DNA of 64,000 nt from Octopus vulgaris (Eukaryota). The stretch spans positions 121,520,001 through 121,584,000 of the forward strand of contig OX597816.1 of the NCBI GenBank assembly GCA_951406725.2, written 5' to 3'. Numbering within the stretch: the first letter of the stretch is position 1; each line of letters starts with the position of its first letter. The notes under the pieces were generated by a model. The model was not told the origin of the DNA. It did not search any database and was given only the letters and a program-made list of their open reading frames with translations. A program made the translations under genes and the position numbers. This document shows, one piece after another, positions 1,866 to 59,957 of the stretch.

Positions 1866-2482
1866 AGATAAGACAGTAAGGTGTGATTTGAGGGAGATTT
1901 GGCTGCTATTTCTACCATGTCTAGCTGCCATGTAGGGGTCTCCCTCATAGGCTCATACATACATATATACATAGATAAGACAGTAAGGTGTGATTTGGGG
2001 GAAATTTGGCTGCTATTTCTACCAGGTCTAGCTGCCATGTAGGGGTCTCCCTCATAGGCTCATACATACATATATACATAGATAAGACAGTAAGGTGTGA
2101 TTTGGGGGAAATTTGGCTGCTATTTCTACCAGGTCTAGCTGCCATGTAGGGGTCTCCCTCATAGGCTCATACATACATATATACATAGATAAGACAGTAA
2201 GGTGTGATTTGGGGGAAATTTGGCTGCTATTTCTACCAGGTCTAGCTGCCATGTAGGGGTCTCCCTCATAGGCTCATACATACATATATACATAGATAAG
2301 ACAGTAAGGTGTGATTTGGGGGAAATTTGGCTGCTATTTCTACCAGGTCTAGCTGCCATGTAGGGGTCTCCCTCATAGGCTCATACATACATATATACAT
2401 AGATAAGACAGTAAGGTGTGATTTGGGGGAAATTTGGCTGCTATTTCTACCAGGTCTAGCTACCATGTAGAGGTCCCCCTCA
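1866..2482 (-). repeat. 107-bp tandem array (5.8 units) built from the 5' head of dispersed element family H
   Basis: Units start at 1866, 1973, 2080, 2187, 2294 and 2401 (agataagacagtaagg...). Units 2-5 appear identical. The ORF track shows the same 107-bp periodicity. Confidence 0.95.
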
Positions 2483-2854
2483 TCTCTCTATATATAAACG
2501 GCAGTTTGTCTGTGTGTGTTTCTGTGTGTCTGTCAGGTTGTACCCTCACCCTGACCACGGCTTTCAACCGATTCTGATGAAACTTGACACACACATAGCC
2601 CAATGTCATAATTCAAAACTAACGCAGCGAAAATTTTGAAAAGTTCCCCCAGTTCTGAAAAAAATCGATAAATTCGACATGGAGTCGAGAATCAGAAACA
2701 CAAACCACAGACTGTCTAGGGGACGCAACTCGACCTTTTTAACTAAAAAAAAATTTACCATCATTTTTTTTCAATTTTTTTGGCTATAACTCTCTAAAAA
2801 TGCTTTATAGTTATTTCCCTTACAAACCCGAGCAACGCCGGGCGATACTGCTAG
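2483..2854 (+). mobile_element. non-autonomous Helitron (family 1), complete
   Basis: 5' TC, 3' CTAG preceded by the GC hairpin cccg-agcaacgc-cggg, inserted between A and T with no TSD. A near-identical copy lies at 38862-39242. Confidence 0.85.
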
Positions 2855-7805: not shown

Positions 7806-8800
7806 TATTACTACTTATTACGCCCTTATTACTTCTTTCAATACGGTAGTATATGATTTGCGGTTACTTCGTTGTCCGGTTTCATCTTGAGCAGTTTTGA
7901 GGAATTCATGCTTGGTCTGACCTGGAGCAAATTCACACTTGGTTTCTTGGCACGTTTCTCCAACGTTGCTAATTTTGGTTACTTAGTAGATTTCCTAACC
8001 GAATAGTTGTGTTTCATATCATCTGATAGTCCGAGATCTGTTAAAAACAGTTGCCAAAAACACTCTCAAATCACACTCTACTGTCATACAAAAAGGAGGG
8101 ACACATTGAAAAAAATAGGGTTCTACATGAAGGCACACTGTATCTGAATAAAACACCTTTAATCGTAGGTCGAATCGATTTTTGGCTGAGCAACAACGTT
8201 TGATTGGCTGATAAGTTTTCTTCTATGCTAGAACAGAATGTTTGGCTGGTCCTTTTATATCCAACAGATGTCCAAATGGCTGTCGTCACCACCACCGTCA
8301 CCACCATCACCACCACCACCACTAACACCGCCGACGACGACCATGACGAGCTACCAGCTCCTTCTCCTCTTCCCGCTGCTTTCATCCTCCTCCTCTTTTT
8401 TCCAATACTGCCCCCTTTCCCCTTCTCACAGCATATCAACTTATCCTAGAAAACAAAAAGCGCATATATCACAGTGGGGTGGGGTTAATTATTCAGTTAT
8501 ACCATCTGATTGGAAAACAATAGCTAATTTAGTCATAACATCATATAGTGGGCATCAAAATACCCAAATAGAAATAATTATGTTGGGAGAAAAATACATT
8601 AGATCAACGATTAATACGATTCCAGTAATAATATTCTACTTGTGATATGTCCGAATATTACGCTTAACAATGGAACGAAATGCAAAGCTCCGCCTTATGA
8701 GAATAACTTTCTCTGTCATGGTCAATGTGAAGAACATACCCTATACACTTACCTTCTAAGAACTGCTGTAAACAGTGAAAGTGAGCAAGAACGTTAAACT

Positions 8801-10944: not shown

Positions 10945-13487
10945 ATGCAGTGGTAGTAGTAGTGGTAGAAGGTTGTAGTCGGGGATGAGGTGCCCGAGGA
11001 AATAGTGGTAGTGATGTGATGATGGTAGCGGTTGCGCGCTGGGAAGTGGGGGTTGTGATGGCTGTGGTGATGGTATGGGTATTAGTAGCAGTGGTTGATG
11101 TTGAATGAAAATTGCCAGTGGTTGCTATTGGTATTTATTGGTTCTGGTGTTGGTGTTGGTGTTGGTGTTGGTGTTGGTGATGGTGGTGGTGGTGGTGGTG
11201 GTGGTGATTGTGATGGTAGTGGTGGTGGTGGTGGTGATGGTGGTGGTGGAGGTGGTGGTGGTGGTGATGTTGTTGGTAGTGATTGTGATGGTGGTTGTGG
11301 TGCTGATGGTGATGGTGGTGGTGGTGCGGATGGTGGTGGCGATAGTAGTGGTGGTAATGGTGGTAGTAGTGGTGCTGATGGTGGTAGTGGAAGAGATGGT
11401 GTGTTAATCGAGGTGGTAGTGGTGGTGGTGGTGGTGATGGAGGTGGTGGTGGTGGTAATGGTGGTATTTGAATAGAGGCGTTTGTGATGGTGATAACATG
11501 GTGGTAATGTTGTGATTGTTATTGGTGGTGGTGGTGGTGGTGGTGTGGTGGTGGTGGTGATGATGGCCGTCGTCGTCTTCGTAATACTGGAGTTGCCAAC
11601 GGTAGATAGAAATAGTGATGCTTTCAAGGTGGGGGAGGCGGCGTTGATAGTCAAGGTGGTGGTAGAGAAGCTATAGAGACATCCCCATCACCACCACCAC
11701 CACCACCACCACCACCACCACCACCACCACCACCACCACCACCACCACCGTGATCCCCAAAACCACCATCACTGATGCTGTTGCAGGTATCATTGGCTAT
11801 GTTGTTGTTGTTGTTGTTGGTGGTGGTGGTAGTGGGTGGTAGTGGTGGTGGTGGTGGAATTAGTGCTATCGAAGAGTTTGGTCCTGTTATCATTATGCAT
11901 CTCTACCATCGCCGCCGCCACCGCCACCACGTCCACCACCAACTCCCCTCCTCCCCTCCTCCACACCCACATCTACTCCCACCACATCCATCACCACATC
12001 CACCACATATACCACCTCTTCAACCACCACCACCACCACCACCACCACCACCACCACCACCACCACCACCACCACCACACCACCGCTACCGACAGCAACA
12101 CCAACAACAATACCATTTCACACCATTCATACAGGCACTACTACATCAACACTACATCACCGGCGCATACACGCACCATACCAGTGCTATTCCAAGAACA
12201 GAAGACATTCACCACCACCATCATCGTCATCATCATCATTTTCATCATCAGCATCACGACCACCACCATTGACACCAGCACCCATCTTTATTGCCCCAAC
12301 CAGCGATAAATATCAGCCGACGCTGCTACCGATATCCACTCCACCCTAACCCAATCTCCATCCCTCTCTAGACGGCACATCACTAAAACCCCTCCCACCA
12401 CCACCACAACCACTGCCACCACCACTACCACTACCGCCACCACAACCTCAGCCACCACAGCTACCAGAACCACCACCACCACCACCACCACTGCTACCAA
12501 CACTGCTCCACCACCACCACCTCCCACCACCACTACCACCACCACCACCACAACCACCACCACCACTACCACTACCGCCACCACAACCTCAGCCACCACT
12601 GCCACCACCACCACCACCACCACTGCTACCAACACTGCTCCACCACCGCCACCTCCACTACCACCACCACCACAACCACTGCCACCACCACTACCACTAC
12701 CGCCACCACAACCTCAGCCATCACTGCTACCACCACCACCACCACCACCACTGCTACCAACACTGCTACCACCACTGCCACCTCCACTACCATCACCACG
12801 ACCACGACCACCACTACCACTACCGCCACCGCCACTACCACTACCTCAGCCACCACTACCGCCACCGCCACCACCATCATCCCAACCGCTACCACCACCG
12901 CAACAACCACCACCACCACTACCACCACCGCCATCACCACTACCACCACCACTACCACCACCACCACAACCACCACCACCACCATCACGACTACTAGCAG
13001 CAGAAGCAGTAGCAGTAGCAGTAGTGACGGCGGCAGTAGTAGTACCAACCACATTTGCCCACACTTCAACATCAGAAACACCCTTCCTTAACAACGAACA
13101 CGAGTCAATTAAAGAGACCTCTCTGTGGGTTATTCGATTTGCTCGAAATAGCTACCAAAATCTCTTAGCAATTCATAATACTCTACCGTCTTAAACAGGT
13201 CACGTTGAGCAATATGACCCCGTCGCTGGTTAGTTCCCTGGCAAACAGGGGAAAGACGAGTTGATCATGGTTGGAATGCTTTTAATCATAGCTCTGTCGC
13301 CTACTTGATCAGAACTAAGTCGAGGCTAAACTACGAAACAACAAATATCACTCATCAATACATCATCAACAACTCTACTCGGATCGCTACTCCCCACCAC
13401 CAAAAACCATCAATACCACCGCTTCTATCATTTTATCACTATCATCACCTCTGTCATGACGACGACGACTACCATCCTCCTCCTCCC

Positions 13488-14989: not shown

Positions 14990-16410
14990 AAGATCGCCAG
15001 CATTAAGACGTACCAACAGAAGGAAGCTGCTAGAAATGACAAAGGAGGAAAGTAGATTTTGTTATCAGTAAGATAGATACTAAAAATATAGGAGACACTA
15101 ACTTATTGGTTTATGCTGGAGGGGTCGTAGTTACGAGAAGATTAGATATTCCACGAAGAAAGATTAAGAAAGAGCAACTGTGGAAAAGAAAATTACTAAA
15201 TAAAGTGAAGACTTAAAGACAAGATCTGAGTGGAATGGAAGTCTGGAAAATGATCAAGATAGGAAGCATAAGATGCAAATTTTCACTCGTGAAAAGATAC
15301 TTAGTCAAAGAGAAAGGATTTGGGACAATAATAGAAGAGTTAAAACAGTGTATCATAGCAGTAGCAAGCAAGCTCTCCAGATATCAGAAAAGAATAGATC
15401 AGTATCAACAGAATAAATTATTTGAGATAGCCCGGAGGAGATTTTATAACCAAATAAATAGTGAAGAACGAAGTACTGAAGATGAGAAACCTGATGTAGG
15501 AGCTAGAAAGTTCTGGAGTATTGTTTGGGATAAGCCAGTCAATCATAATGAAGATGCAGTATGGTTAAAGAAAGTGAGGGAAGAAGTGGTGAGTGAGAAG
15601 CAGCCAGATCTAAGATTAACTAGTGCATTAATGAGTAAAGTGTTAGAGAAAATGCCGAATTGGAAGGGCCCAAGACCAGATTTAGTTTAAGGGTACTGGT
15701 TAATGAAATTGAGTAGTTTTCATGGGAGGCTAAGGGAACAACTTCAGGATTGCCTTAATGGAGGAATAATACAAGACTGGATGACTAGAGGGAAAACAAT
15801 ACTCCTTATGAAAGAGAAAACAAGGGTAATACAGCTAGCAATTATAGACCAATCACTTGCTTACCATCAGTGTGGAAGTTGTTAACAGGAATGCTTTCAG
15901 AAGGCATTTACGAGCACCTTGACAACCAGAATTTACTGCCAGAAGAACAGAAAGAAGGCTAGAGGAACGCATGGTCTGTTATACATAGACAAAGCAGTTC
16001 TAAATGAAGTAAAAGCTAGAGAGAAAAATTTAACAATAGCATGGATAGATTATAAGAAGGCCTACGACATGTTCTCACACTCATGGATAAGTGAATGCTT
16101 GAATATATTCAGTATAGTAGACAACATAAAAGAATTAATTAGTTGTAGCATGAAGTAATGGAAAGTAGATCTCTACTCAGTTGACACAGTCTTAGGGAAA
16201 GTTAATATAAAGAGAGGGATTTTCCAAGGGGACTCGTTATCCCCTTTAATATTTGTCTTATGTTTGACCCCCACTCAGTTTAGTACTAAAGGAGGCAAAG
16301 ACAGGGTATCAGTTCAGAAATAGTAAGGAAAAAATAAACTATTTGCTCTATATGGATGATCTGAAGCTTTTTAGTAAGAATGAAAAGGAGATAGATTCCT
16401 TTATAACTGT
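14990..16410 (+). pseudogene. R4/Dong-clade non-LTR retrotransposon reverse transcriptase, decayed
   Basis: Motifs MPNWKGPRPD, NYRPITCLPSVWKLLT, LLPEEQK, AWIDYKKAYD, KRGIFQGDSLSPLIF and LLYMDDLKLF, spread across frameshifts and stops. Confidence 0.9.
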
Positions 16411-16519: not shown

Positions 16520-17545
16520 AGAAAGATTTCTTTATTGGCCACGCAGGGCTAAACACAGAAGGGACAAAATACAAAGTAGAGCTTTTCTTTTTGGGAAGAA
16601 GAGAAGAGGAAAAAAATGAAAAAAAAAAAAAAAAGTGGGGCGAATTCCGATCAAAAGGGATCGTGAAAAAAAAGGTGGGGAATTCCGATCAAAAGGGATC
16701 GTGACAAAAAGTGGGGCCAATCAATAAGGATTGTGTATCACAGAAATGTCATTGTAAAAAGGGAAAACAGATTAGGTTTTTCCGTGGATAGAAAAGCCTA
16801 TGGAAAATACCACGGGAACCTTGGGCAATAGTGTCATGCAAAAAGAAAACACATTACAGTAAGTGGGTCTCTTTTCTCCTTTCGCCTTTTTTTTTCTTTT
16901 GGTTCATAGGATTATGCTCAAGCTGGCTCCGTCATTCACACATACCATCCTTGCTACATTCACCCATCTTTTTTTTGATACATTCACTAAATAAAACTTC
17001 CCTCTCTACTCTCACCTTTCTCTTCAAGTGATACTTGAAGAAGTTAATGAGAAATTGACCAGAGAGGAAAGTGTTTGTCTCAAGACCTTTCAAACGCGTC
17101 CACCATACATATTCTTTCACCATAGCCACACGTACGATGAAAATAGCTATTCCCGTTTCAAGGAAGGAGGCACGACAATATTCACAAAAGACTCGGTTGA
17201 TAAACCGACCCGTCCCACACGCTATAGCAGTCATTCGACATAGGCCCACAGGTCGGAAATGGTTCGACACTGTACAAGTACGTGCAGAACAGTTTCGTCG
17301 CTCTGACCGCATCTCGGACAGGTCGGCCCCGTGTTTCTCGAGACATGCCTGTAGAGCTTATCTCGAACGGGTAGCGCTTCTCGACAGCACTGCCAGGCCA
17401 AAGATCTCTGGAAGTTGTCCATAGATCCCAGCCCGAAAGTCGTCTTGAACAGGCGGGTCAGGTACTCCTCGTCGACCCCCAGGTTCGCCCCGAGATCATC
17501 GTCGTACCTCCCCTCCACGAATCCCTTATAGACTGCTTTGGTTCG
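16520..17545 (-). mobile_element. Tx1/L1-clade LINE 3' fragment (ORF2 C-terminal CCHC knuckle plus 3'UTR)
   Basis: ORF 17231..17650 contains AWQCCREALPVRDKLYRH...CPRCGQSDETVLHVLVQC. The 3'UTR ends ...tttagccctgcgtggccaataaagaaat. Confidence 0.85.
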
Positions 17546-17547
17546 TA

Positions 17548-18388
17548 AGAAAGAAAGAAAGGTAGGAAGGAAGGCTGACTGGATGAGGCGCCACTTCATT
17601 ACCGGTGCATTGTGGTCTTTCCCTTTCTTTTTTTTTTTTTTTGTTGGCATCAGACTTTCTCAGAATATATGGGGGAGGGTTGTCTTTTTGTTGCTTTCTG
17701 TCTGTGTTTGTCCTCCACATCTGCTTGGCAACCGGTTTTAGTGTGTTTTACATCTCTTTAATCTAGCGGTTCGGCAACACATACCGATAGAATAAGTACT
17801 AGGCTTTAAAAAGAAAATAAGTATTTAGGTCGATTCATTCCACTAAAAATTCTTCAAGGCAGTGCCCCAGCATGACCGCAGTCAAGTGACTAAAACAAAT
17901 AAAATATATTGGGAGGGGATCAGCGGAGAGTCACAAGACCGCCCTTGGCTCTTCAGGCCCGGCCTGGACCTCAATCTCATTCCCGCACCCAGTCTAAGGG
18001 CCCTTGCATTAATTCGTGTAGCTCAAGATTTGCTGTTAATAAATACATACCATACGTCCACACTCACCCATGTGTTGCTATGCCCTGGTACCTATGATAC
18101 TATTATCATGGCTCCAGCTAAGGTGTGGTGTCACGTTGCTATTTCTAACAAGTTGAGCGACAACTTTTTAGTTCCGTTGTCCAAAGTTCACTGCGGGCGA
18201 TGCTGTTCAAATCCTGACTAACCTGTAGTGCAAAACCCAATTGTATTCTGAGACAGCCTGATGCCAACAAAAGAAAAAAAAAAGGAAGAAGAAAAGACCA
18301 CAATGCACAGGTAATGAAGTGGCGCCTCATCCAGTCAGCTTTCCTTCCTACCTACCTACCTACCTACCTTTCTTTCTTTCTTTCTCTT
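17548..18388. repeat. foldback structure: ~120-145 bp inverted repeats (17548-17668 / 18243-18388)
   Basis: gctgactggatgaggcgccacttcattacc.gtgcattgtggtcttt...ttgttggcatcag.ct.tctcagaata is present in both orientations. Confidence 0.85.
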
Positions 18389-21367: not shown

Positions 21368-22547
21368 ATAAAACTTAGAAACTTAGATATGTTTTGACCA
21401 AAGATTAGTCCAGGTTATGTCTAACTTAATAGCACCACCTGATAGGATTATCTAAATCCTCTTTAAGTCAAGTTTTGTTTATGGTCCATTCAAGCAGTGA
21501 GTTCTTGTTGAGTGAGTTGTATCCAGGTATGGGTGGCTTATCTGGTATTCCTTGAAGAAATCTGGCCAGACTCCTTTTCCTCTTTGATCAGTTTTGGGAC
21601 AATGTTAAACAGGGTAGGGCCTGCTGAGGAAAAGAACTTATGTCGCAGTGTACTTATATGTTGTAATCCTGAATTGGGCAAGGGACGTATGGGCCGTGAT
21701 CCCAGCCTTGGATGAACCTTGAAACTAATGTTCAGGTCGTCTGGGCAATGCTGGCGGTATACTCTCCACATCGTACAAATGATGTACCGCTTGCGGCGGC
21801 GCTAGAGAGGGTAGAGTTTCAAGGTTTTAAGGCGGTCCCATTAATCAAGATCACTAATTCCTTCAATTCGTTTAGTGAGTGCCCTCTGGGGTGATTCAAT
21901 CCTCGAAATGTTTTGTTTTTTTTTTGTAGGGGGAGACCACAGGGGGCAGCAGTATTCGAGGTGTGGCTGTACAAAGGAGAAAAGTGGAATGATGACACCT
22001 TGTTCTCTGGACCGGAAGGTTCATAAGATCCAGGAGCTCATCTTACGAACTATATCGACCTTATTGTTGATGTGGGCACTCCAACTGAGATTGTTATCAA
22101 CAATTACACCCAGGTCTCTGATATCATTAGATGCCGTGAGCGGTTCCCCCGAAGGAAGAGAGTATGGCTGTTTTGGTATAGACTTTTTTCCAAAATGCAT
22201 CAGCTCAAATTTTCCCTCGTTCAGTTGCATTTTGTTTTTGTCTGCCCATTGACTCACATCATATAGATCAGACTGGATTTGAGTTCGGTCATTTTCTTCT
22301 TTGATGATTTGCTGGAGTTTAGTGTCATCAGCAAATATTTTCATTTTGCAGTGATTTACGATGCTGGAAAGGTTATTTATGTAAATTATAAAGAGGAGCG
22401 GGCCCAAGACAGTCCCCTGAGGGACACCACTGGTGACTTTTGCTGGGCTTGAGTGGACTCCATCGACTACAACTTCTTGTGTTCTATTCGCCAGGAAATA
22501 CTTAATCCAGTGTAGGAGCTTTCCACGAATTCCAACATTTACCAATT
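21368..22547 (-). pseudogene. CR1-type LINE, 5'-truncated reverse transcriptase and 3' end
   Basis: ORF 22021..22545 contains SGVPQGTVLGPLLFIIYIN, FADDTKL and DLGVIVDNNLSW. Downstream are PHLEYCCPLWSP and further decayed C-terminal sequence. Confidence 0.92.
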
Positions 22548-23070
22548 TTGAAAATAAGATATTATGGTGCTTGTTTTACCCCTCTGCGAGGTTATTTTAT
22601 TTTAATTCTCTCGCAGGAAGACCTAGTATTGACGAGTCGTGTCCTGTCTTGCCTTCGAAACACGCTAAGTCTACTAGCGACAGTTGATGATTGGGGATTT
22701 TCCTTGTGTAGCTTGTCCTGTACCTTGTTTTTCTGTTGTAAATAATGTTTTTCCCGTTTTCGTTCTCGTCCTGTTCCACGTCCCTGTCTTTCTGTTGTAA
22801 AAAAATGGCTTTTCCGTTTTCGTTTCTGTCGAGTTCTACGTCTTTTTGTGGTGTCCTGTACTTACGTATATATATATTTATATATGCATGTATATATACA
22901 TGTAGATGTAGGTCCGTTTGTATGTATGCATATATTTTATTTATTACACTATTGTCTGACAGCGCTTCGCGTCGGGTTCGTTCGATTCTTCGCTTCGTTC
23001 CGTTTCTTATCCTCCCAGTATTGTTTTATATATATATATATATATATATCATCTACTCTCTCTGACTCCC

Positions 23071-26634: not shown

Positions 26635-26815
26635 AATTGTTCTTGTTTTGCTCCAGGCCAGACCTTATCAAGCGAACCTATTCATCAAAGAGCCGTCAAC
26701 ATCTTGTATTTTCAGACATAGGTTATCTCAGACTACATTATCCATTCCTTTTTAAAGATATAGGTGTATTATGAGAAGAAATTTGGTTGTTATTTCTAAC
26801 AGGTTGAGACATTCC
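26635..26815 (-). mobile_element. family H element, decayed
   Basis: ccaggccagaccttatcaagcgaacctat...atcaaag...atttggttgttatttctaacagg. Confidence 0.6.
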
Positions 26816-28225
26816 AGATACGACCATCTTGTATTTTATCTTAGTGTATCTCAGATTACATTATTTAATGTATCATCCAGCTGCTAAAACAGTCGGGTGT
26901 AATTTGAAGATTATTCTGTTCTTTCCTGCAGTTAGTGCCACCTGGTTGCAGCTTTTTCGTTGGAGGCAAAGGTGTGGTGGAAATGATTGCCGGATTAAAG
27001 GTTCTTTCGTTAAAGGTAGTGGTTGCAGAAATAATTGCCGAACTAATGACCCGCATTTTGGAGGTGGTGACGAGGTGGGTAAATGGCATCTTTTTGGCGG
27101 TGGTGATGCAGCCGAAATGGCTCCTTCGTTGGAGGCTGTAATGTAACCTAAATAATTGCCGAACAAATAGCTGTCTCTCGTTTGGATGCGGTGGTGTAGT
27201 TGAAATGACTGACGGACGTTTGGTTCCTTCGATGGCGGTTATGATATGGTAAAAGTGATGACCTAATTAAATACTTTGTGGTATTTAGTTAGGTCTGTTT
27301 ATGTCCTGAAATTACATAATCCCTCCCTGTGGTCAACTTTGCCTTTCAGCCAATCGAAATCAATAATATAATTTCTAATTTTGGCACAAGGCCAGCAATT
27401 ATAGTGGGAGGGGCAAGTCGATTACTGTGACCCCCAGTATTTGACAGGTATTTTATTAGCATTTCATGTTACCAGACTCTGTCTAAACTTTCAAAAATGC
27501 AATACGCCCGTAACTTGGAGAACGCTTGTATTCGCATTTGTTACGTCACGAAATAAATAAAAAATGAATATAACAGAATCTTTTAGTTTTTAGGTGGCTA
27601 GCATGTTTCTTTTCACTATCTAATTGCTTTTAAATTTATAAATTTTTAATTCTTAATAACTAAGAATACCAAAGGAAGGGTGGCAGACTTTTCAAGGATG
27701 GTTAACTACTCCTTGCCCCTCCTTGTTTACAGCTATTCCAGTTATAAACTAGAATTTAATTTTTGCAACAATAGACTTCTTCTTCAGTTTAGTGGTTTTG
27801 TACCAACCAATCAGAAATCACTGAATTCGAAAACGCTGTAATCGGATTATTCCTATAAATATAATTTAGCGTGTAATGATACAAAAACATAACCTAAAAC
27901 AAGTTTTGAGTGCCATGTTTCAAATTACGTATATAATAAACAAACAGAAAAGTAAGGAAAATAAATTAAATATTCTTCTGTGGAGGTATCAGATTTTTCT
28001 AGTAATTAAATACTTTCACAGATATGGGCAGAATTATTAAAGCGTCAGATAAAATGTCTTGCGGCATTTGTTCTTTACAGAGTTTAAATTCTACGAGGAC
28101 AACTACTCTTTTTTCATTCTCCCAAAGTCGATAAAATAAAGTACCAGTCAAAATACTGAGTCAATATAATCCACTATTTTCTCTCTTTCCTCCTCACAAT
28201 TTTGGCCTTTTGCCAACGTAATTTA

Positions 28226-29030: not shown

Positions 29031-30387
29031 TTATTATTATTACAAAGGCATCGTGGCAGATTTTTTTAGCATGTCGGACAAAGCGTTTGGCGGCTTATTG
29101 GAGTATTGAACAAAATACATTAGAATAACGAATTGCGTCATTGCATGTTCTGCCGTTTCGACTTACTTTCATCCTTCTTGGTTTTCTAAAACTAGGGTCG
29201 ATTTCAACGATTGCATTGGTGCCACTTTAGTGTGTAATTTAACCCTTATTCTAAACATTAACTGTAACCCTTATTCTAAACATTAACTCTTATCTTAAGT
29301 TTAACCCCAAACTCAAACATTAACCCTAAATCCTAACCCTTACCTAACCCTTGTCCTAAATCTCAACCTAAATCTTAAACTCTAATTCCAAACCCGAACC
29401 CAGATCAGCCCATTTCACAGTGTAGATTACAGATACTGCAGTAGCCCTCTCGCTAAAGTAATGCCGTTATATTTCTCTCCTGAAATTTGTGATCCTGTAT
29501 CTATATTTTAAAAAATAAAAAAAATACGATCTTTAAGAATCTTTTGCATCACAGAAAACTCATGACTTGGAAATCATCTTATTAAGCTCTTTCAGTATTT
29601 TAGGGAATACTTCTTAGGACAACATTATCCAACGTCTCCTTCCCTTTCCGAAGAGGGTTGAGTGTGATTGAGAGTGATTTGGTCGCTATTTCTTACTGGT
29701 CGATAGTCACCACATTTCTGGTAGTTGTGTGGGAGTCTTGTATAAAGTTAGAATAGTTGCTTGTGCACCAGTATTTGGATGATGAACAGAAGAGAATGTA
29801 AGTTTGATATCAAGAAAACGGTCTTGTAAGGTAAAGCATGAAAATAATGGGTGACTGGACGGATCCATGTGATACCCTATTCAGAAAATTGTAAATTCTA
29901 GGAAACGTTCATTTTACATACTTTATAAAGGTTTAGCAAAACGACAGGTAATTTAATAATAATAATAATTGTGTACAGTGCTCAGGTGCACTACAACTCA
30001 TCTAAAGTGTATATATAATCAGGTGTAGTTTCGGCGGATTTCGGAAAGCATGAGGGCCTTAAAGGATGCAGTGTCATGCATTTGCTAGATAACAGAATTT
30101 TATATCACTGTTTCTTAATGTGGTGCCGAATAAGGGACTGCAAAGAAGAGCTGGGGTGTGAGGGTGGGGCCTTTTCCGTTTCTTTCCTTTTTTTCTTTAA
30201 ACCGTCACGTACGTTGAGTGGATTGACTTGAATCAATGGTGTGTTATGAGACGGGTTAGGGTTAGGGTTAGTGATGTCAAATATTAGCCCTCGGTATCTC
30301 TGGGGTGTTAAGTGTGTTATTGTCTGTTAGCAACTTGTTGGGATGTCTGTGTGAATATGTACTGTAAGTCAATGTGTCTGCTGTCTT

Positions 30388-32033: not shown

Positions 32034-33739
32034 GTTTCCGAGGTTGTGTAACTGTGCCGACATGAAGTGAATTAAAACAATAATATCTCTGTTGGCGAAG
32101 GAAATACATTTTTTATCGAATCACACCATCGAAAGTGAGCACCACCACCAACACTACCGACACCTATACAACCACCACCGCCAACGCCACCACTACCGAC
32201 ACGTATACAACCACCACCATCAACAACAACAACTCCAGCACAGCTACCAACTCTCCTACCACTAATAACAACAACAACAACAACAACACAATCACCAACA
32301 TCACCACCGCCTCCATCAGTAACAGCGCCAAGAACTTCACCGGAAGTAAGAATAATGTAGAATTTATATACACATGTCAATAGTTTAATTGTGCATGATC
32401 TTTAAAGTGGTGGAAAGTTCTCGATGAATAGAATCTGAAACACAAGTTCGATTCCTTTCCTCAGTTAGAGCATTTCATTTCACATCTCCCTAGTAAGTAT
32501 CAGTAATTCTTGGATGCATAAATATGTTCCAGCCCCTAACTCCTCTTTCCTTTCTTTTTTTTTCCTACCAATGCTAGAACGAACGATCATTACTCTTCGA
32601 AGGTAACTATTTAGGTAGCTACTACCACCTCCACTCAAAGCTCACATGCCACACTCAACTCTCTTTATCTCATCGTCCATTCAGTGTGTCCTCATTTATC
32701 TGGAACACACAGTAACCACTATGTTGTTTCTTCCAGGAACGACAACCCTCTTAACTTCTACTCTTGCCCACATTCTTCCTGTAATTAGTTTACAGAGGTT
32801 CATGCTGAACATCCACAATATTAGTCCCACCGGATTCGTGGGTTTGTACGTGTTCTCCGAAAATATTTGGGCCGTCCATAATTTTCTGAATAAACCCTAG
32901 AAAGGTGAATGGATGAGAGAGCCCTTACGTTGTGACTCAGCCAAATCCCCTCCCCTTGCACAAAATACACTTTATTGTTTGTAAAAAAAAATAAGGACGC
33001 AATACGTTTCATCACAGACCTGCTTATCTATGATGAATTAGGGTTGATTAGGGGTTAAATTACAAGAGTGGAACTACCTAGTCACTAAACTATAATGAAA
33101 ATTACCGAATAGTGAATAGACCCTTAAATCTTTAATAGGTCTCTCTAGTAGTATCGGGGTAAGATGTTTGGTTTATGACAAGGCTGACCCTTTGAATTAT
33201 ATAAGTAATCTATTTTTTATGGTTTTATTCAGGAAGAAGGGATTGTACCCGTAATGTATTTAAGATTTCCAGAGACTGGTAGGAATCGTTGCGATTGAGG
33301 CTTACGTAAAATAGCTACGATTCGCTTGTTGTGGGGCGAAATGTGGGCGAGAAAGGTAGGCGGTCAGAGAGAAAGGATTGGATACTGAGGTTACCATACC
33401 ACCGCCACCATCAACAACAACAACGCCCCCACAATACTTTGCAAGTTCTCACTTAAATAGAAAATATAATTTCTAAGAAATGCAGTTAATACTAAGCATT
33501 TGTCAAACATTTGACAACACTATGCATTTGTCAAGCATTTGTCAAGCCCACTTGTAAAATAATGATTCATTAATTTTTATAATTTTTTTTGCATATTTTG
33601 GTAAACGTTCAACTACGAAGTTTTTCGCGTGTAAACTGTCACCAATCAACTAGGACAACTTCTATGATATCAATATTTTCTCTCTTAGGGAAATATTACG
33701 TAGCGCTGGATTTCGGTAGATTTGTTACTTTATGTTCTA

Positions 33740-35874: not shown

Positions 35875-38820
35875 CATTTCTACCAAAGTCACTAGGACGC
35901 AAATTCACAGGGAAAGGGTAGAATCGAATATATTGATACCAAAACCGGTTGGTTTATTTTATTGACCCCCAGAGGAATGAAAGGTATAGTGAAGCTCGAC
36001 CAGATTCTAAACCAATACATGAAGGATCACAACAGAAACCCACGTTGGTATTTAGTCTGGCACTCTACGGTTTGTGTCACGCCCTTGTTTTATGATATTG
36101 AATACAACTAGTTTGTACTTGTGAGTCATCATAGTAAATATCACTCTTCCTCATTTCTTCTTCCACACTCATGTTTTAGTCTATCCCCCTCCTTGTGCCA
36201 TCAATATCGATGAATGACCATTGTAGCTTCCTTGACAAATGCTCACCACGGGGATTAGTTTAAGGGAGTTCTCAACTATTGATGAAGAAGTTGGTTTGCC
36301 ATCCATTGACTCACGTCATCAATACACTGCTGACAGGATCTCCCACACTGACGCTTACTCAGGATAATACGAAACGTGACAGTTCACTCCACTCGAGACT
36401 GCCGGATGGTTGGCGGTAAATATAGCCAAAATATGTCAGTTTCCGCTTACACTACTTTTTTCCCAGGCTGGGAGGATTGCCTACTTGATCTTGGACATGC
36501 ACGTCCGTCTTGTAGTAGTGTAGTAAAGAAGTTAATTTAGTATCCGGTTCTTAACGCTTCTATTATGACCTGAACCTACAAGTGGGGCCGAGCTTACTAC
36601 TGCGAGTTGATGCTAAATTCGAAAGTTTATAATGCAACTCTTCTTTCGAAAGGACAAAGGGTAAAGTTGACCTGGGCAGGATTTGAACTCAGCGCGCAGA
36701 GAGTCGGGACAAATACCATGAAGCATTAATTCTATCCTCTTATTGTTCATAGAAGGAAAAAGGTTCAAGTCGACCACGGTGGTATTTGATCACAGAATGG
36801 GGCATTATTAAATACAGCAAAAACAGAGCGACGAGCTGGCAGAGTGGTTACCACGCGGGACAAAATGTTTGGTGGCATTTCTTCCGGCTTAGGCTTTGAG
36901 TTCAAATACTGCTGATGTCGACTTTACCTTTTATCTTTTCGAGCGCAATCAAATAAGTAACATTTAGGTACTGAAACCTATATGACCGACTACCCGCTAC
37001 CACAAAATTTCCGGTATTGTACCGATAATAGAAATGATTATTATTAAAAGGACAGCGAGTTGGCAGAATTCCTAGAGCATCGGAAAAAATATTTTGCGAT
37101 ATTTCTTCCGATTCTTTATGGCCCTGAGTTCAAATTCCACCGAGGTCGACTTTGTCTTTCATATTTTCGAGATCGATAAAATAAGTACTAGTTGTGCACT
37201 GGGGTCGTATGTAATCGAATACCTCCTTCCTCTAAATTTCAGGCTTTGTGCTTATATTACAAAGAAAAGTAATATTAAACACTACAATGCATTTTATCCT
37301 ACGTTCTACTGATTCTACCATCGTCTATGATAGCAATTTTTAACATAGCCATGACGCTAGAAAGTTGTGAGAAGTGAACATTCGATTATATCAATCTCAG
37401 TTTTTGACTGGTACTTTATTTTATCAAAAGCAAAGCTGACTCAGAAATCAGAACGTAAAGAGCCGGAACAAATGCCTTGAAATATTTTTCAACGCTAGAT
37501 CTTGGTCACCATTCAATGACTAGATATATTGATTCAAGTATTTGACAAGTAATCTATTTTATCGATTCCCCGGGATTATCAAAAGCAAAGTTGACTCCAC
37601 AGAGTCAGAAAGCAGATCATAAAGGGACGCAGCTAAATACCACGAAAACTAATATCTAGCACTATCGCGATTCTGCCAAAAGTGCTTTAAATCAAAGACG
37701 AGGAAGAGATATAAAGTCGATTAAATCGTCACCAGTATTTAAATGGTCTCTTTAATCGACCATCGGAATGAAGAAATGCAAAAACATATCTAACAGGGTT
37801 TGATCTGAGAACATAAAATGAAAATAATAATAATCATTTCTGCTATAGGCACAAGGTCTGGAATTTGTGGGGTGGGGGATAGTCGAATACATCGACACCA
37901 GTATTTGAGTGGTACTTAATTTATGGATTCTGAATGGATGAAAGGCGAAGTCAACTTCGGCGGAATTTGATCCCCGAACGTAAAAACAGGAGTTTCACCG
38001 GTACTTAATTTATCGACCCCGAAAGGATGAAAGGCAAAGCTGACCTCGGTGGAATTTGAACTCAGAACGTAGCAGCAGACGAAATACCTATTTCTTTACT
38101 ACCCACAACGGGCTAAACACAGATAGGACAAACAAGGACAGACAAACAGATTAAGTCGATTATATCGACCCAGTGAGTAACTGGTACCTAATTTATCGAC
38201 CCCGAAAGGATCAAAGGCAAAGTCGACCTCGGCGGAATTTGAACTTTGAACGTAACGGCAGACGAAATACGGCTACGCATTTCGCCCGGCGTGCTAACGT
38301 TTCTGCTCGCCGTCTTATTGATGATAATGACAATGATGATAATGAAATGCAACTTAGTATCTACAAGTATTTTTTTTATCTACTACTTTACCGAGTCTTC
38401 CACTCCTTGAGCTACTTACCATACGTTACGTATTGATCTCGATGTTGTAGTTTAATCCCGAGTCAGCCTTAAATTAGGGAACTTATGATCAAGGTGTTCC
38501 CACCGTGGTTATTTCGTCTTTTCCAATTTACAGGGTTAGGATCACATTATCCAGAGGTAAGCTGTTATGTAAGAAAGATTTGGCTGCAATTTCTAGCTTG
38601 TCAAATAACCATATGGTGGTGATTTCTAACATAGACTGAAGGCCACATATTCTGGGAATGAATTTAATAGATTATATTGTCACCTGTACGTAACAGGCAC
38701 TCTATTTTATCGACCTCGGAACGACGAAAAGTAAAGGGTACCTCGGTGAGATTTGAACTAAGAACGTAAAATACGAAGTGGTATTTTATTTTACCCACCA
38801 CTCTACCGACTCTGCCAACT
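35875..38820. mobile_element. dense cluster of SINE family B copies in both orientations (about 10 fragments)
   Basis: gaaaggcaaagtcgacctcggcggaatttgaactcagaacgt and its reverse complement recur throughout. Confidence 0.8.
38440..38625 (-). mobile_element. family H element, decayed
   Basis: tttaatcccgagtcagcc...tatgatcaaggtgttcc...gatttggctgcaatttctagcttgtcaaataaccatatggtggt. Confidence 0.6.
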
Positions 38821-38861: not shown

Positions 38862-39242
38862 CTAGCAGTATCGCCCGGCGTTGCTCAGGTTTGTAAGGGA
38901 AATAACTATAAAGCATTTTTAGAGTTATAGCCAAAAAATAGCAAAAAGATGGAAAAAAATGATGGTAAATTTTTTTTTTAGTTAAAAAAGGTGGAGTTGC
39001 GTCCCCTAGACAGTTTGCGGTTTGTGTTTCTGATTCTCGACCCCATGTCGAATTTATCGATTTTTTTCAGAACTGGGGGAACTTTTCAAAATTTTCGCTG
39101 CGTTAGTTTTGAATTATGACATTGGGCTATGTGTGTGTCAAGTTTCATCAGAATCGGTTGAAAGCCGTGGTCAGGGTGAGGGTACAAGAAAACAGACACA
39201 CAGAAACACGCACAGGCAAACTGCCGTTTATATAGAGAGAGA
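38862..39242 (-). mobile_element. non-autonomous Helitron (family 1), complete
   Basis: Reverse complement of 2483-2854, with A|TC ... CTAG|T junctions. Confidence 0.85.
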
Positions 39243-39545
39243 TAATTAATGGCAGTAATATTTGTAGAGTCGTCTGCCGCTGTTTGTGCCGGCAATCTGT
39301 GCGCCAAGTTTTAAGTCCTAAATCAAACCAAGATGAACTTTGCCTTCAGGCACCTCAGGGACAATAAGGTACCAGTCAAATACTGGAGTAGGATCTTTTC
39401 TTTTAATCGGTTAAGCTTCGCTTTTAGAAGGGCCATAAAAAGTTACTACTCGTAGTATCCCTTTATTCAGAAACGAAGGAAGCTAACCACCCCTTCGAAG
39501 GACATATCAGTACGAAATACAGCACAGAAATAAAATAGTTAGTAT

Positions 39546-39968: not shown

Positions 39969-40703
39969 AAATAAAAGAGTTAAGCAGTCTTAATGAATGA
40001 CCTCAGCTGTTATTTAACCACGGGCCGGTACTCCTCCCGCCTTCCGTTGAAACTTGTGCATTTAATATGTAATTGATTTAATCAACATGTGTATCAGTTG
40101 TTAGTGATTCTTTCTGAAAAGACTCTCTTAATCAGTCATTGTAATTATTTCGTATGTGCTTGTGTCAGTGTAGGTGTACGAACACTCATGTAAGTATGCG
40201 TTTGTTTCGCATGTATGTGGATACGTGTGTGCGTGTGTGAGTGAGTGTGTGTGTGACCACGTAAGAGTTTTATAATTGAAAGTGACTATAGACATAAGTG
40301 TGAGTTCCCCCTCTCTCTCCCTCTTCCCCCCCTCTCTCTCTCTGTCTGTCTGTCTGTCTCTCTCTCTCTATCTATTTCTACGTATTGTTTCTTAAACTGG
40401 CAATCCTTCGTTTATTTTGTTTGGTTTAAAAACTTGTTTATTGACAGACTACGTAGATCCGTTTCCGGTCTCTCCCATTTCACTTTTTCCTTTCTGTTCC
40501 AGACGTATTTGTTATCTTAAGGTTACAAGGCGAGCGTCGTCGAGTAAAGTTCCTGACGAATCAACTCTGCAACCAGGTTTCAATTCTACATTGTCACCAC
40601 TTCAATATCATTGTTGTGTAGTCTCGCTTTAGTCCAAAGTGACCCAGATGCATGATCAAAAACATTCTGACCTCAGCCAGTTCGTTTTTTTATTAAAAAC
40701 TCT

Positions 40704-41239
40704 GTATGTATGTATGTATGTATGTATGTATGTATGTATGTATGTATGTATGTATGTATGTATGTTTGTGCATGTATGTGTGTATGTATGTGGGTATGCA
40801 TGCATGTATGTATGTGTGTGTATGTATGTATATATGTATGTATGCATCCTTATATGTAAGTATGCACTCTTATATGTCCAAAGTGACCCAGATGCAAGGT
40901 CAAAGACTTTCTGACATCAGCCAATTTGTTTTTTATCAATGTATGTATGTATGTATGTATGTATGTATGTACGCGTGTATGCATGTACGTGTGTATGTGT
41001 GTGCATTTATGTATGTGTGTATGTATGTATGTGTGTATGTATGTATGTATGTATGTATGTATGTATGTATGTATGTATGTATGTATGTATGTATGTATGT
41101 ATGTATGTGTATGTATGTACGCGTGTATGTATGTACGCGTGTATGTGTGTGCATGTATGTATGTATGTATGCATGTATGTATGTATATATGTATGCATCT
41201 ATGTATGTATATATGTATGCATGTATGTATGTATGTGTG

Positions 41240-42476: not shown

Positions 42477-42560
<84 letters not shown>

Positions 42561-43310
42561 CAAGGATTACTTTGTCTACTGCAACCTTCTTCATTTAAGA
42601 GTGTGCAATGTGATTTGAGAAAGAATTCGTTGCTGTTTTCTTTATTCGTACTAGTTTTATTGTTATCGGAAATGCATTGTTGTATTGTGTCACCTTAGGT
42701 TAGCTTTTATCAAAGACATTCTAGCCATGATCACCCCATCTGGTCTTTCAGACACAGTACATCTAGGGCTAAATTATCCAGAGTATCCTTTATTTATTGA
42801 AACGGTTTGGTTGGCTAGGAGAGAATTTGGGTTCTATTTTATCTTTTTTCATAGTTCTTTTATTGATTCGATGTGGAGAAAAGACTCGTGCCCTTTACAT
42901 CTGCAGGCTTTCTGAGCAATGCAGTCTCAAGGTATGGGTGACCGAGGGTTCAATTATCTACGGTACCAACGCTAATCTATGTATACTGTGGCTTTCTATC
43001 AGTTATTAAATACTATGAGCTACAGTGCATATCTTCGCAGGGTTTTTAATGATGTGCTTATAAAGATGTGAAGACGGCCCTGCTCAAGCATCTATAACAG
43101 TATTGGGCAACCTTTATCGAGAAGTTGGCCACATAAGACATGTCGCATATTCAGGCAGGCCGCTCTACTAAAAAAAGATTAGTTTTTCGTTTGGTGTGCC
43201 ATTCAAAACATCTCACTGACCGCAGTTTTTCCATGACTGATATATAATGATGTTAAAACGGCCCTGCTTCTAAAACCTCTGACATTGATACAATTAACGT
43301 TCCTCTAGCA

Positions 43311-47095: not shown

Positions 47096-47171
47096 AACAA
47101 AATTGTTGGGACTCATCTTGGTACCTATAACCTATCCAGTAAGTGTTTAAACGAAGCCAGCCTAGAAAGTT

Positions 47172-47380
47172 TGTTGTTGTTGTTAGGTCTCAGATCAGCC
47201 CTGATCGAGAAAAAGAAAGATTAAAAGCATTCCAGCCTTGACCATCCTGGTTGTTAAGGGTATGTAAGACAATATTATCTATAGCGTCTTTTCCCTGTTT
47301 AAGATAGCAAGATGAGATTTGAATGAGGTTTGGTTGTTATTTCTAGCGAGTCAAGTAACCATGTAGATGCTTCTCATTGC
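47172..47380 (-). mobile_element. family H element, near full-length
   Basis: (GTT)n-aggtctcagatcagccctgatcgag...gcattccagccttgaccatcc...tttggttgttatttctagcgagtcaagtaaccatgtagatgcttctca. Confidence 0.65.
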
Positions 47381-48074
47381 CACATACAACAAAAAATTGT
47401 TTCTCTTAAAGACCGTGAGCTTAGAGAATTGGCGCCCATTTAGCTTAAGGAGTCATCAGTCATCTTCTCCCCCACCTCCGAAACTATAGCAACAGGCTTA
47501 AAAATCATCTAATTCAGAATTTCGAAATCATGTTGGCATTATAAATACAACTGATTTAGAAGCTGTCATTATATGCTCGACCGTATCTGTCTTTTACATT
47601 TAAGATATGAACTGAAGTTTGTAAAAATTAAAATACTCAATAAAATATCTTTCATTTCTCTCTCTCTATTCTCTCTCTCTCCCTCCTCTCTCCCCCCCTC
47701 TCTCTCTTCCATATACGTGCATATATACATACGTACATACATACATACATACATACATACATACATACATACATACATACATACATACATACATACCAGC
47801 AAATTACCCCGGCCAAGAATGTGCAAGACTGTTTTTGTATATGTTGAATTGGTCATATCTGTGCGGAGATTAGGCGAGTTGAAATCGAGACCGATGCGAG
47901 TCATTAGGTACCTCTCGTATCCGAAGCAAAATCAGAATGCTCTTTCTTTGTAAATATGTCAATTCAACCGTAAAATTATATAATTTTAATTTGATGATTT
48001 TATATCTTCTTCTCGTTTAGAGTTATTTTCAGTTATTCTTAGGTATTTAGTTGGGGTTTTTTTTTTGTTAAGAG

Positions 48075-49310: not shown

Positions 49311-49759
49311 CAAGTAGTGTTATTAAGCTAGACATGACGTGGGAACAATCTATGGCCAAAACATATCTAAGTTATCTATGCTACATAAATCCACACTCAC
49401 ACACACACACGCGCGCGCGCACACGCACACACACGCACACACACACATGTAAGTACATACGTATGTATGTATGTATGTATGTATGTATGTATGTATGTAT
49501 GTATGTATGTGTGTGCGTGTGCGTGTCTGAGTGTGTGTAAAAGTATGACTGACAAAAATACCGTTGCATTCACTGCATCAAAACGCAATAGTCAGATGGA
49601 TGCTAGCATACATGATGTGGTAAGCTAAGAAATTTCACTTAATCAAGATTGCAACAAAACAGCCATGTTTGTTGTTGCTGCTAAACTGCAGGTCAGCTTT
49701 AACTGAACACAGTTGTTAGCAAGGACGTTCTAGCTACAATGATCCTGTCATATAATATA

Positions 49760-50314: not shown

Positions 50315-50640
50315 TTTGATGAGATTATTGTATTGCCAATATATCTTCATTTAAAACGCTATTGTGTGACTTTTAAGAAGAGCTGACTGCTATTTCTAGC
50401 TAGCACTTTGCTTTGGCTAATCTTGCCTATATTAGTTATGTATGTACACTAGAGATACGAACTCGCGTCACAGACGCTACATTGAAGCCCACGAGTAGAG
50501 GACGTTGCCCATCCGGCCATTTAGTTTCCAACGAACAAAGAAACCGAAACTGTAGACGTTGCAGAATTGAAACTTTATATCTTGGGTTTTTGAAAGGTGT
50601 AGAAATGTGAAGAATCTGCATACGAATCATTGCAAGTTGT

Positions 50641-58519: not shown

Positions 58520-58697
58520 TATTGCTGCTGTTTAAATCCATGACAATTTTTGATCGGGTAGACCTAGCGTATCTAGAACATCTTTATTCAATGTTTCTTT
58601 TCTTTTTTTCAGGCTGGTTGGCGGGATTTGCGAAAGAGTTGGCTGTAATATTAAAGCACGTCGCGAGACTACATTAAAGGCTTCTTCATTCATTCGG
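58520..58697 (-). mobile_element. family H element, highly decayed
   Basis: Minus-strand head cgaatgaatgaagaa-gcc-tttaatgt-agt-ctcgc-gac...acag-ccaa-ctctttc. Confidence 0.45.
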
Positions 58698-59957
58698 TTT
58701 CCATCGATAGCGATAATGATGGGAATTGTTATAATGATACTTTGCCTTGTCTTGAGCCCTCAACTCCTTGATTGAATCATAGGGCGTCGTCGTGACATAC
58801 GGTGTGTCTTGGGCATTTTTAGACAAAAAGGGACCATCCCTCTCCAAGTTTAACTACAGCCGATTTTTACCAGAAGAAGGTACTCTATATTCGAATAACA
58901 GATAAAAAATGGTTGTGGATGGACTATCTTTTACAATAGGTCTTCGCGATCAGAACTGTCCTGGATAAATCCAAACAACAGAGACAGACAGAAAGAGTTA
59001 GAGAATGAGAAAAATCGACCCCACTATAAGACTGGAACTTATTCATCGACCCCAAATGAAGGAAACGGTAAAGTTGACTTCGGTGGAATTTGAGCCCAGA
59101 ACCCAGAGAACCGAAACTATTACCACAAGGCAATCTGTCCGAAGCCCTAATTACTATCGCATCAGGCCGCCTTAGTGATATTGATAAGCCTGATGAGACT
59201 GGTAGAGCGGAGACAGAGACGAATGAGTGAGTGTGCGTGTATGTGTGTGTGTGCGCGCGCGCGTTTGATATGCATCTTTGCACCAGAAGTAAATATTGGG
59301 CATGTCAAGACAGTGAAACCGTTTTCGATTCTCAGTCGAAGCAACTTCACTTCATTTATACTTCTGGTAATCTTAGGACAATTATGGACAGCAGAATATC
59401 GAATTTGCGGCCAGTGAAAGAACGCAAATAATTTTTTTTTTTTTTTTTTCAGCTGAACTACATGGTGCTGCCTCAACTCTTTTTACAACAAAGGAAATAT
59501 ATAGGTCTATGCCTCTGTTCTCACTCTATCTCTTATTTTCTCCCTTAAAACCACCATTTCCCTCTTCTTACTCAGCACAATCCAACTCATTTCCATGCCA
59601 CAACCACAACCATCACCATTTTTCTTTCCGCCTTCATCACCTACATTTGCTACTACGCCACCACTACCATCATCGCCACCACCACCACCAAGATCAACAA
59701 GTATATGCAACACGTGCCAGACACATCAAACTCCTCCTATCCGACACGCCCGTGGGTGGCGTCATCTAAACTTACGTCTTCTCTCAAATGATACTGAAGC
59801 TCTTTCGCACTCAACTTGCTTTGATCCCACCTCTTATTCCTGTTGCCCTCATTGACGACAACGACGACGACGACGACGATGATGATGATGATGATAATGA
59901 TGTCATTGCTGATGTTGCTGTTCTCTGCTGTTAGTGCTATTTATTATTATTATTATT

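Follow-up and report, generated by a model that had tools for sequence, protein, structure and literature searches.

A decayed high-copy repeat family of Octopus vulgaris whose reconstructed ancestor begins with a predicted HDV-like ribozyme fold

Family H in the window and across the genome

The window, i.e., the whole 64,000-nucleotide stretch of Octopus vulgaris DNA that was analyzed (contig OX597816.1, positions 121,520,001 to 121,584,000), carries on its plus strand a decayed, full-length copy of a dispersed repeat, here called family H, with head, body, and tail (nhmmer, 96 bits). The initial annotation had placed a copy at 13101; its exact extent is 13101 to 13345, and alignment to the reconstructed ancestor showed that it covers the entire unit, with 158 of 215 aligned bases equal to the ancestor from the first position to the last. 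C13101 is the first base of the element according to the boundary test described below, and cleavage is predicted immediately 5' of this base; the 5' strand of P1 occupies 13101 to 13106, where five pairs with 13132 to 13136 are still possible. By alignment to the ancestor, the 5' strand of P2, decayed in this copy, and the 5' strand of P3 lie at 13110 to 13119, followed at 13120 to 13130 by L3, which is decayed and has one extra base here, and the 3' strand of P3; the ancestral L3 was read from column counts. Column counts also place the 3' strand of P1, together with the A of a putative single U-A P1.1 pair, at 13131 to 13137. The P4 hairpin with its GAAA tetraloop (13139 to 13154; from the alignment and the pair probabilities of the ancestor) is partly broken. 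J4/2, with its candidate catalytic C at 13156, and the decayed 3' strand of P2 were located at 13155 to 13167 from column counts and from the alignment of copy L161 with the CPEB3 model. The rest of the copy, 13168 to 13345, consists of a body that is structured according to the folding of the whole ancestor, a 3' stem-loop, and a degenerate (AAC)n tail.

Family H was recovered by iterative profile searches, the seed of which was the best full-length copy in the window (47171 to 47379, minus strand). A blastn search from the 13101 copy returned one 26-base match, decay being too great to connect the other copies. The profile search gave 35 near-full-length matches of 135 to 265 bp (median, 197 bp), in keeping with the earlier description of a dispersed family of about 200 to 240 bp; the unit is about 216 nt long, and its 3' end is the (AAC)n that had also been described, in degenerate form. 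In the 64-kb window, the final profile yielded 22 matches, comprising 6 units of the array and 16 further copies or fragments, whose E values are flattered because the profile was partly built from them. The reversed-sequence control gave no matches in 360 kb.

Profile matches were found at eight of the nine minus-strand positions listed in the initial annotation; the ninth, at about 6470, has no family H copy (best profile score, 1.8 bits). Besides the seed copy, the minus strand carries a copy at 38441 to 38620, two head-to-tail partial copies within 26635 to 26964 (26964 to 26807 and 26808 to 26635), a partial copy at 29613 to 29715, two adjacent 5'-truncated copies within 42555 to 42839 (42839 to 42683 and 42638 to 42555), a tail-only copy at 49669 to 49756, a partial, internal fragment at 50336 to 50402, and a near-full-length copy at 58520 to 58695. 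The profile search added copies that were absent from that list, on the plus strand at 8035 to 8199, 32907 to 33065, and 58886 to 58983 and on the minus strand at 40607 to 40705, as well as a weak minus-strand copy at 18135 to 18178. The non-array copies are distributed 12 to 4 between the minus and plus strands (P = 0.08). Since a search for a host gene, in which 80 of the 243 unique open frames of the window were scanned with Pfam, gave a zf-RVT fragment only, this skew is not attributable to a gene.

The genome that was searched comprises 2.80 Gb in 227 contigs, has a GC content of about 39%, and is rich in microsatellites. In 36 unselected 10-kb stretches there were 34 family H matches, which corresponds to about 2.6 × 10^5 copies or fragments genome-wide (Poisson 95% interval, 1.8 × 10^5 to 3.7 × 10^5) and, by extrapolation from the same sample, to about 1.3% of the genome; the family is about 2.5 times denser in the window than the genome average. 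The copies are mostly solitary, with 4 adjacent pairs among 56 matches. Heads do, repeatedly, form local tandem arrays with units of 90 to 105 bp, and whole units are also found in tandem (L009, L016 on C30, L104, L162, and L017). The copy at 47170 to 47385 was also present in DNA sequencing runs of organisms A to E, and no RNA run carrying it was found among the runs listed for it. Many paralogues of the head occur in contigs of organisms A, D, and E, where the loose-end consensus runs on into the same 3' strand of P2. Two runs that we guess to be RNA contain head paralogues as contigs (188 and 434), which are uninformative about ends, strand, and expression.

An array at 1866 had been counted as a member of the family. 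Comparison of its flanks and pairwise comparisons showed that this 107-bp tandem array of a captured, broken family H head (1866 to 2483, minus strand) is not an independent insertion but is carried within a younger element of about 2.1 kb. Its units have at least 79 matches elsewhere in the genome at 99 to 100% identity (40 of 410 candidates scored), its downstream flank is common to 20 of 20 other loci among those listed, and about 2.1 kb is common to all seven pairwise comparisons of the array-bearing element. Positions 1040 to 2483 and loci L071 to L100 represent this young (about 99% identical) composite, with its variable 107-bp array; it may, at a guess, be Helitron-like, and its copy in the window is interrupted at 2482 by another element. 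The array was also considered as a non-LTR retrozyme or a tandem ribozyme repeat of the Sm-alpha type, in which every unit of the tandem bears an intact (hammerhead) ribozyme, a reading that was rejected because P1 and P4 are broken in the array unit and because the array lies inside a larger element. Positions 2482 to 2753 and 38972 to 39243 are inverted 272-bp copies, 94% identical, of another young repeat.

The reconstructed ancestor and its predicted fold

The ancestor was inferred from 155 independent copies, whose identity to it averages 67%, with a maximum of 82%; the mean is somewhat low because rows were extended to the model ends. The family is old, and its present copies are likely inactive. 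Substitutions are mostly C>T and G>A, and four dinucleotides of the head show a CpG-type TG/CA split that is lacking in control dinucleotides (110 of the 155 copies aligned). A CpG-restored 21-base core, written before it had been found in any copy, has four exact matches in the genome, compared with none for the control. No young copies were found by three exact-pattern genome-wide searches, since these gave only 3, 4, and 6 matches, all of them decayed copies.

The initial annotation had read GAGTGA as the 5' end and as a strand of P1. This was not borne out; the family begins CGAGCCAA. In the 61 of 155 copies that were anchored, retention of G and C is significant from base 2 on (P = 5e-5 to 4e-12 at G/C positions), and none is seen upstream. 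Of 16 copies whose 5' end is well preserved, 13 begin with C (8 copies) or T (5 copies), and the base preceding the element is mixed (A, 6; T, 5; G, 3; C, 2). The strongest prediction of the HDV-like reading, that the 5' boundary of the element would coincide with the start of P1, was confirmed, in that the element begins with the C that forms the first base of P1; this agreement is one of position, not of cleavage. Within the copies, paired positions of the head are kept no better than unpaired ones, as in neutral decay, and selection never acted on the fold in these copies.

The column counts contain the P2, P3, L3, GAAA-capped P4, and J4/2 C that had been proposed, whereas the proposed P1 pairing was wrong. 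In the ancestor, the first five bases of P1 pair with the strand that follows P3, with a C-C mismatch at the top (six positions, five of them Watson-Crick pairs); according to the accessible part of the source, P1 of HDV-like ribozymes has 6 to 7 bp, with cleavage at its first nucleotide (PMC4908430). J1/2 has 3 nt, and L3 reads UCUACGU. P3, initially given as ACC/GGU, is mainly GCC/GGU; an extra A occurs in the array and in the 13101 copy. P4 consists of six pairs capped by a GAAA loop, with pair probabilities of 0.91 to 0.98 for five of the six. J4/2 carries C-A-A-A, after which four contiguous P2 pairs can form in the canonical register; shifting the register by two gives seven P2 pairs at the cost of one P3 pair. 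J4/2 had been supposed to be 1 to 2 nt longer than usual, which is not required if the catalytic C is the second one. This candidate catalytic C, which in copy L161 aligns with the catalytic C of the CPEB3 model, is C in 78 of 108 copies and T in 25, a pattern like that of other C positions. Position 22 of L3 is U in 82 of 96 copies and its partner is A in 96 of 106, so that a single U-A pair could form P1.1. All helices, U20, C21, C24, and G25 of L3, and the C-N-R-A of J4/2 are intact in the ancestor. Any given insertion is shared by at most 2 of 110 copies, so that the shortness of the P1/P1.1 region goes back to the master and is not an alignment error.

The canonical HDV-like consensus has C22 in L3 and a C22-G38 pair as P1.1. 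A strict HDV-like descriptor rejects the ancestor on account of its six-position P1 with a C-C mismatch, the U at position 22, and the single U-A pair. A relaxed descriptor of the nested double pseudoknot (P1, P2, P3, L3, P1.1, P4, and J4/2) matches the ancestor at base 1; on 20,000 dinucleotide shuffles, it matched 2 anywhere and 0 at the 5' end. Because the descriptor had been relaxed after the sequence was known, a retest under looser rules was run, in which 0, 2, and 34 of 4,000 shuffles matched at the 5' end. The relaxed descriptor found no sites in 464 kb of genomic sequence and matched at none of six loci with well-kept copies; self-excision would apply only to the ancestral master, since no present-day copy tested passes.

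Comparison with Rfam models of HDV-like ribozymes gave a result below the gathering score. For L161, the best-kept copy, the top match was CPEB3_ribozyme over the full model, at 15.7 bits against a cut-off of 35 (E = 0.12 over 4,227 families), with two bases missing between P1' and P4 that no subfamily restores. The three other copies scanned had no HDV-like match, so that one of four was positive. Genome-wide, none of the five RF00622 matches was a family H copy (59 candidates scored), and RF01787 had no matches (56 candidates scored). When the entire window was scanned with Rfam, the 150 matches listed, of 306, were microsatellite artefacts.

Absence of covariation had been named as a result that would speak against the HDV-like reading, and covariation was indeed at shuffle level in 37 copies (290 and 166 of 500). 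This says little, because the copies decay neutrally, with paired positions no better kept. The pairing is register specific, with 66% of cells paired compared with 24 to 48% when the structure is slid, a result that is favored by the derivation of the structure from the consensus. Nested folding of the ancestor, a method that cannot model pseudoknots, favored the shifted 7-bp P2 (0.63 to 0.67) and a rival hairpin (0.5 to 0.6) over P1 (at most 0.29) and P3 (at most 0.06), and the whole ancestor had a folding z score of -3.85, with none of 300 shuffles as low. The HDV-like reading fits the corrected, CpG-restored ancestor, although its original P1 pairing and the expected covariation did not hold and the fold is noncanonical at P1 and P1.1. 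We consider it highly probable that the head of family H descends from an HDV-like ribozyme.

Promoter, mode of spread, and competing explanations

The absence of A and B boxes that had been reported was confirmed; the best 11-mers have 3 mismatches to the A box and 3 to 4 to the B box, no better than on the reverse strand. ARAGORN found no tRNA genes in the window, and there were no tRNA, 7SL, or 5S Rfam matches inside the four scanned copies. A classical SINE, with a small-RNA head and Pol III transcription, was rejected on these grounds, and inspection by eye and the Rfam scans gave no support for tRNA, hammerhead, or twister readings of the head. The earlier label SINE is therefore loose; in the usage found in the accessible text of PMC3414825, cotranscribed elements of such a kind are SIDEs.

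Family H is polar, with a sharp 5' start, a structured unit, a 3' stem-loop, an (AAC)n tail, and 5'-truncated and tail-only copies, from which we infer that it spread by LINE-driven retroposition. Target-site duplications gave no signal in 31 full-length copies, in which the mean best match was 6.7, compared with 5.8 ± 0.3 for the null, and about 5.7 after four units of one local tandem had been subtracted by hand; these copies are about 30% diverged. The partner LINE that the initial annotation suggested looking for was not found; the 900 bases downstream of each of 77 RT-like regions contain no match to the tail (about 1 Mb, in which old LINE families are barely sampled). An RVT_1 search returned mainly young LINE families with ends unlike family H, which from their motifs we take to be CR1-like and RTE-like, and none of the young LINEs examined starts with a family H head. 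Tail-only and head-only copies have no flanking family in common, and a search of viral contigs with an RT protein returned nothing. Within the window, the 3' end of a young 949-amino-acid APE-RT family with an (ATT)n tail lies at 30022 to 30078 (minus strand), and there are LINE fragments, including older RT remnants and the zf-RVT fragment, at 21712 to 22566 (minus), 15898 to 16254 (plus), and 17234 to 17659 (minus).

Because the ancestor has no tRNA-type promoter and begins exactly with the predicted HDV-like fold, it is likely that family H spread by self-excision from host transcripts. The first 65 or so bases of the ancestral RNA are predicted to have folded as a variant HDV-like ribozyme, which would have cut just 5' of the first C of the element and so freed family H RNA from read-through transcripts of the host. 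In a next step, an APE-type LINE, presumably of the RTE or I/Ingi/Vingi/Nimb group, would have bound the structured body, the 3' stem-loop, and the (AAC)n tail and reverse transcribed the RNA. On the predicted fold, family H is probably a non-autonomous retroposon of the SIDE/NARTc type that was released by such a ribozyme and is now a fossil, and there is a reasonable likelihood that cleavage set its 5' end. A bolder version, which we regard as doubtful, is that the variant ribozyme, with its six-position P1 and swapped U-A P1.1, was a stand-alone SINE head, not taken from the 5' UTR of a partner LINE, and was behind one of the largest expansions of a ribozyme in an animal genome (about 2.6 × 10^5 copies and more than 1% of the octopus genome), giving rise to a Pol III-independent class of dispersed SINEs.

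Several observations could also be accommodated if the head were a relic of an HDV-like ribozyme from the 5' end of a LINE, already crippled in the master, with the 5' end set by an internal Pol II promoter, as is thought for the Pr77 and LP-SINE heads, or by end protection. The noncanonical P1 and P1.1, the two bases lacking relative to the CPEB3 model, and the competing predicted folds fit such a history, and, in the accessible portions of the respective papers, several SIDER ribozymes with plausible folds are inactive (PMC4035085), Pr77 doubles as a promoter (PMC3383444), and mollusc LP-SINEs bear LINE-derived heads of about 70 bp (PMC4758252). A crippled master is disfavored by the intact helices, L3 letters, and J4/2 in the ancestor of a family of about 2.6 × 10^5 copies and by an element start exactly on P1, and we consider this explanation rather unlikely.

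It seems improbable that the HDV likeness is coincidental, in which case the head would have originated in a different structured RNA or in an atypical Pol III gene, with the P2 and P4 hairpins plus the rival hairpin as its true fold. The predicted minimum-energy fold is a three-way structure without P1 and P3, covariation is missing, and the head contains words that weakly resemble the A box (2 mismatches in 12) and the B box (2 in 9), but these words are no better than those of the reverse strand and lie too close together for a tRNA head, in which the spacing of the A and B boxes is greater. Moreover, the fold arose at the 5' end in none of 20,000 shuffles and in less than 1% even under very loose rules, and the top match in an independent Rfam scan is to an HDV-like family. 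The missing target-site duplications and partner LINE, together with the heads in local tandem arrays (L009, L016, L104, and the 1866 array), might instead point to a non-autonomous DNA element or a microsatellite-associated repeat that spread by recombination. Against this stand the polar anatomy, seen in the sharp 5' start, the (AAC)n tail at the 3' end, and the presence of copies that are truncated at the 5' end or reduced to the tail, and the ancestor, in which no terminal inverted repeats were seen by eye; we regard an origin other than retroposition as very improbable.

Relation to known systems and a second repeat with a ribozyme-like head

Non-autonomous retroposons with a ribozyme head occur in trypanosomatids and in the rDNA of Drosophila. 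In the portions of the sources that are accessible, short derivatives of this kind are described for L1Tc/ingi (PMC3383444, PMC4035085, PMC3185411) and R2 (PMC3414825), some SINEs are stated in a review to use hammerhead or HDV-like ribozymes (PMC6765202), and bipartite non-autonomous LINEs arise from RTE, Ingi, Vingi, and R2, with RTE, Ingi, and R2 carrying 5' ribozymes (PMC5786205). Ribozymes of the L1Tc clade begin at C1 (PMC4035085), and L1TcRz works with a single-pair P1.1 (PMC3185411), according to the same partial texts. The concept of a ribozyme-headed short retroposon is thus already known; the scale and the ribozyme variant appear to be new.

Like family H, the NARTc, RIME, and SIDER elements are short, noncoding, and present in high copy number, and their Pr77 ribozyme, which the family H head resembles by prediction, occupies the first 70 or so nucleotides, cleaves 5' of +1, starts at C1, and has a single-pair P1.1 (accessible parts of PMC3383444, PMC4035085, and PMC3185411). 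Family H differs in its animal host, in an (AAC)n rather than a poly(A) tail, in having no autonomous partner found, in its mismatched, six-position P1, and in that its fold is predicted. Likewise, Drosophila R2 and the R2/R1 SIDEs have an HDV-like ribozyme head instead of a Pol III promoter, the SIDEs being non-autonomous and cotranscribed (PMC3414825, accessible text); SIDEs are site specific in 28S rDNA and few, with tested ribozymes and known parents, whereas family H is dispersed, with about 10^5 copies. RTESINE, Bov-A, and the Vingi derivatives share with family H their length, microsatellite tail, and lack of a small-RNA head (PMC5786205, in part), but the homology to LINE 5' and 3' UTRs that defines this type was not found for family H. 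The CPEB3/HDV-like family (RF00622) has the same helix order, 3-nt J1/2, 3-bp P3, 7-nt L3 ending in CGU, and C-N-R-A in J4/2; against it, family H has a score of 15.7 rather than 35 bits, U at L3 position 22, and a P1'-to-P4 interval that is shorter by two bases. Mollusc LP-SINEs are also short, with a non-tRNA head of about 70 bp, and have been proposed to be Pol III independent; by eye, the LP head (PMC4758252, supplement figure S2) is unlike that of family H, and no ribozyme is proposed for it in the accessible text. Family H does not qualify as a canonical HDV-like ribozyme, nor can it be called a proven bipartite derivative of a LINE.

No report of an HDV-like ribozyme in a cephalopod repeat was found in the literature searched, which did not extend to subscription papers, and the family may already be catalogued in Repbase or Dfam. 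The only paper combining ribozyme, cephalopod, retrotransposon, and HDV was PMC5786205, the accessible text of which does not mention octopus, and the accessible parts of PMC13708176 and 10.1101/2023.05.16.540928 contain nothing on family H. If release by a ribozyme is correct, a dispersed animal family of about 10^5 copies would demonstrate that self-cleavage is able to take the place of a Pol III promoter at SINE scale, the sequence rules for HDV-like ribozymes would be widened to include a short P1 and a U-A P1.1, and sense-oriented intronic copies would be predicted to be depleted in cephalopod genes. Without cleavage of the RNA, family H would be an ordinary old repeat with a ribozyme relic.

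Of the five sites found in the genome with RF00622, four lie in another old repeat, which has a canonical CPEB3-like head. This second, low-copy repeat is represented by L165 to L168 and L171 to L173 (e.g., L167:1501-1580, minus strand; G000:C17:7801974-7802053), and the P2-P3-L3 and J4/2 letters of its head are close to those of the mammalian CPEB3 ribozyme (33 bits; cut-off, 35). A broken frame that follows the head resembles, we assume, the start of an Ingi/Vingi endonuclease; a six-frame Pfam search of the sequence after the head returned nothing. The canonical head of this repeat indicates that a ribozyme-head strategy was in use in the lineage, and since it differs from the head of family H, the second repeat is a precedent in the same genome and not the parent. 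It may also be relevant to the question of whether the CPEB3 ribozyme originated in a retrotransposon. In addition, a CPEB3-ribozyme match above the Rfam cut-off, at 39.1 bits, lies at L164:1501-1579 on the minus strand (G000:C17:20038532-20038610), in a context unlike that of L165 to L168.
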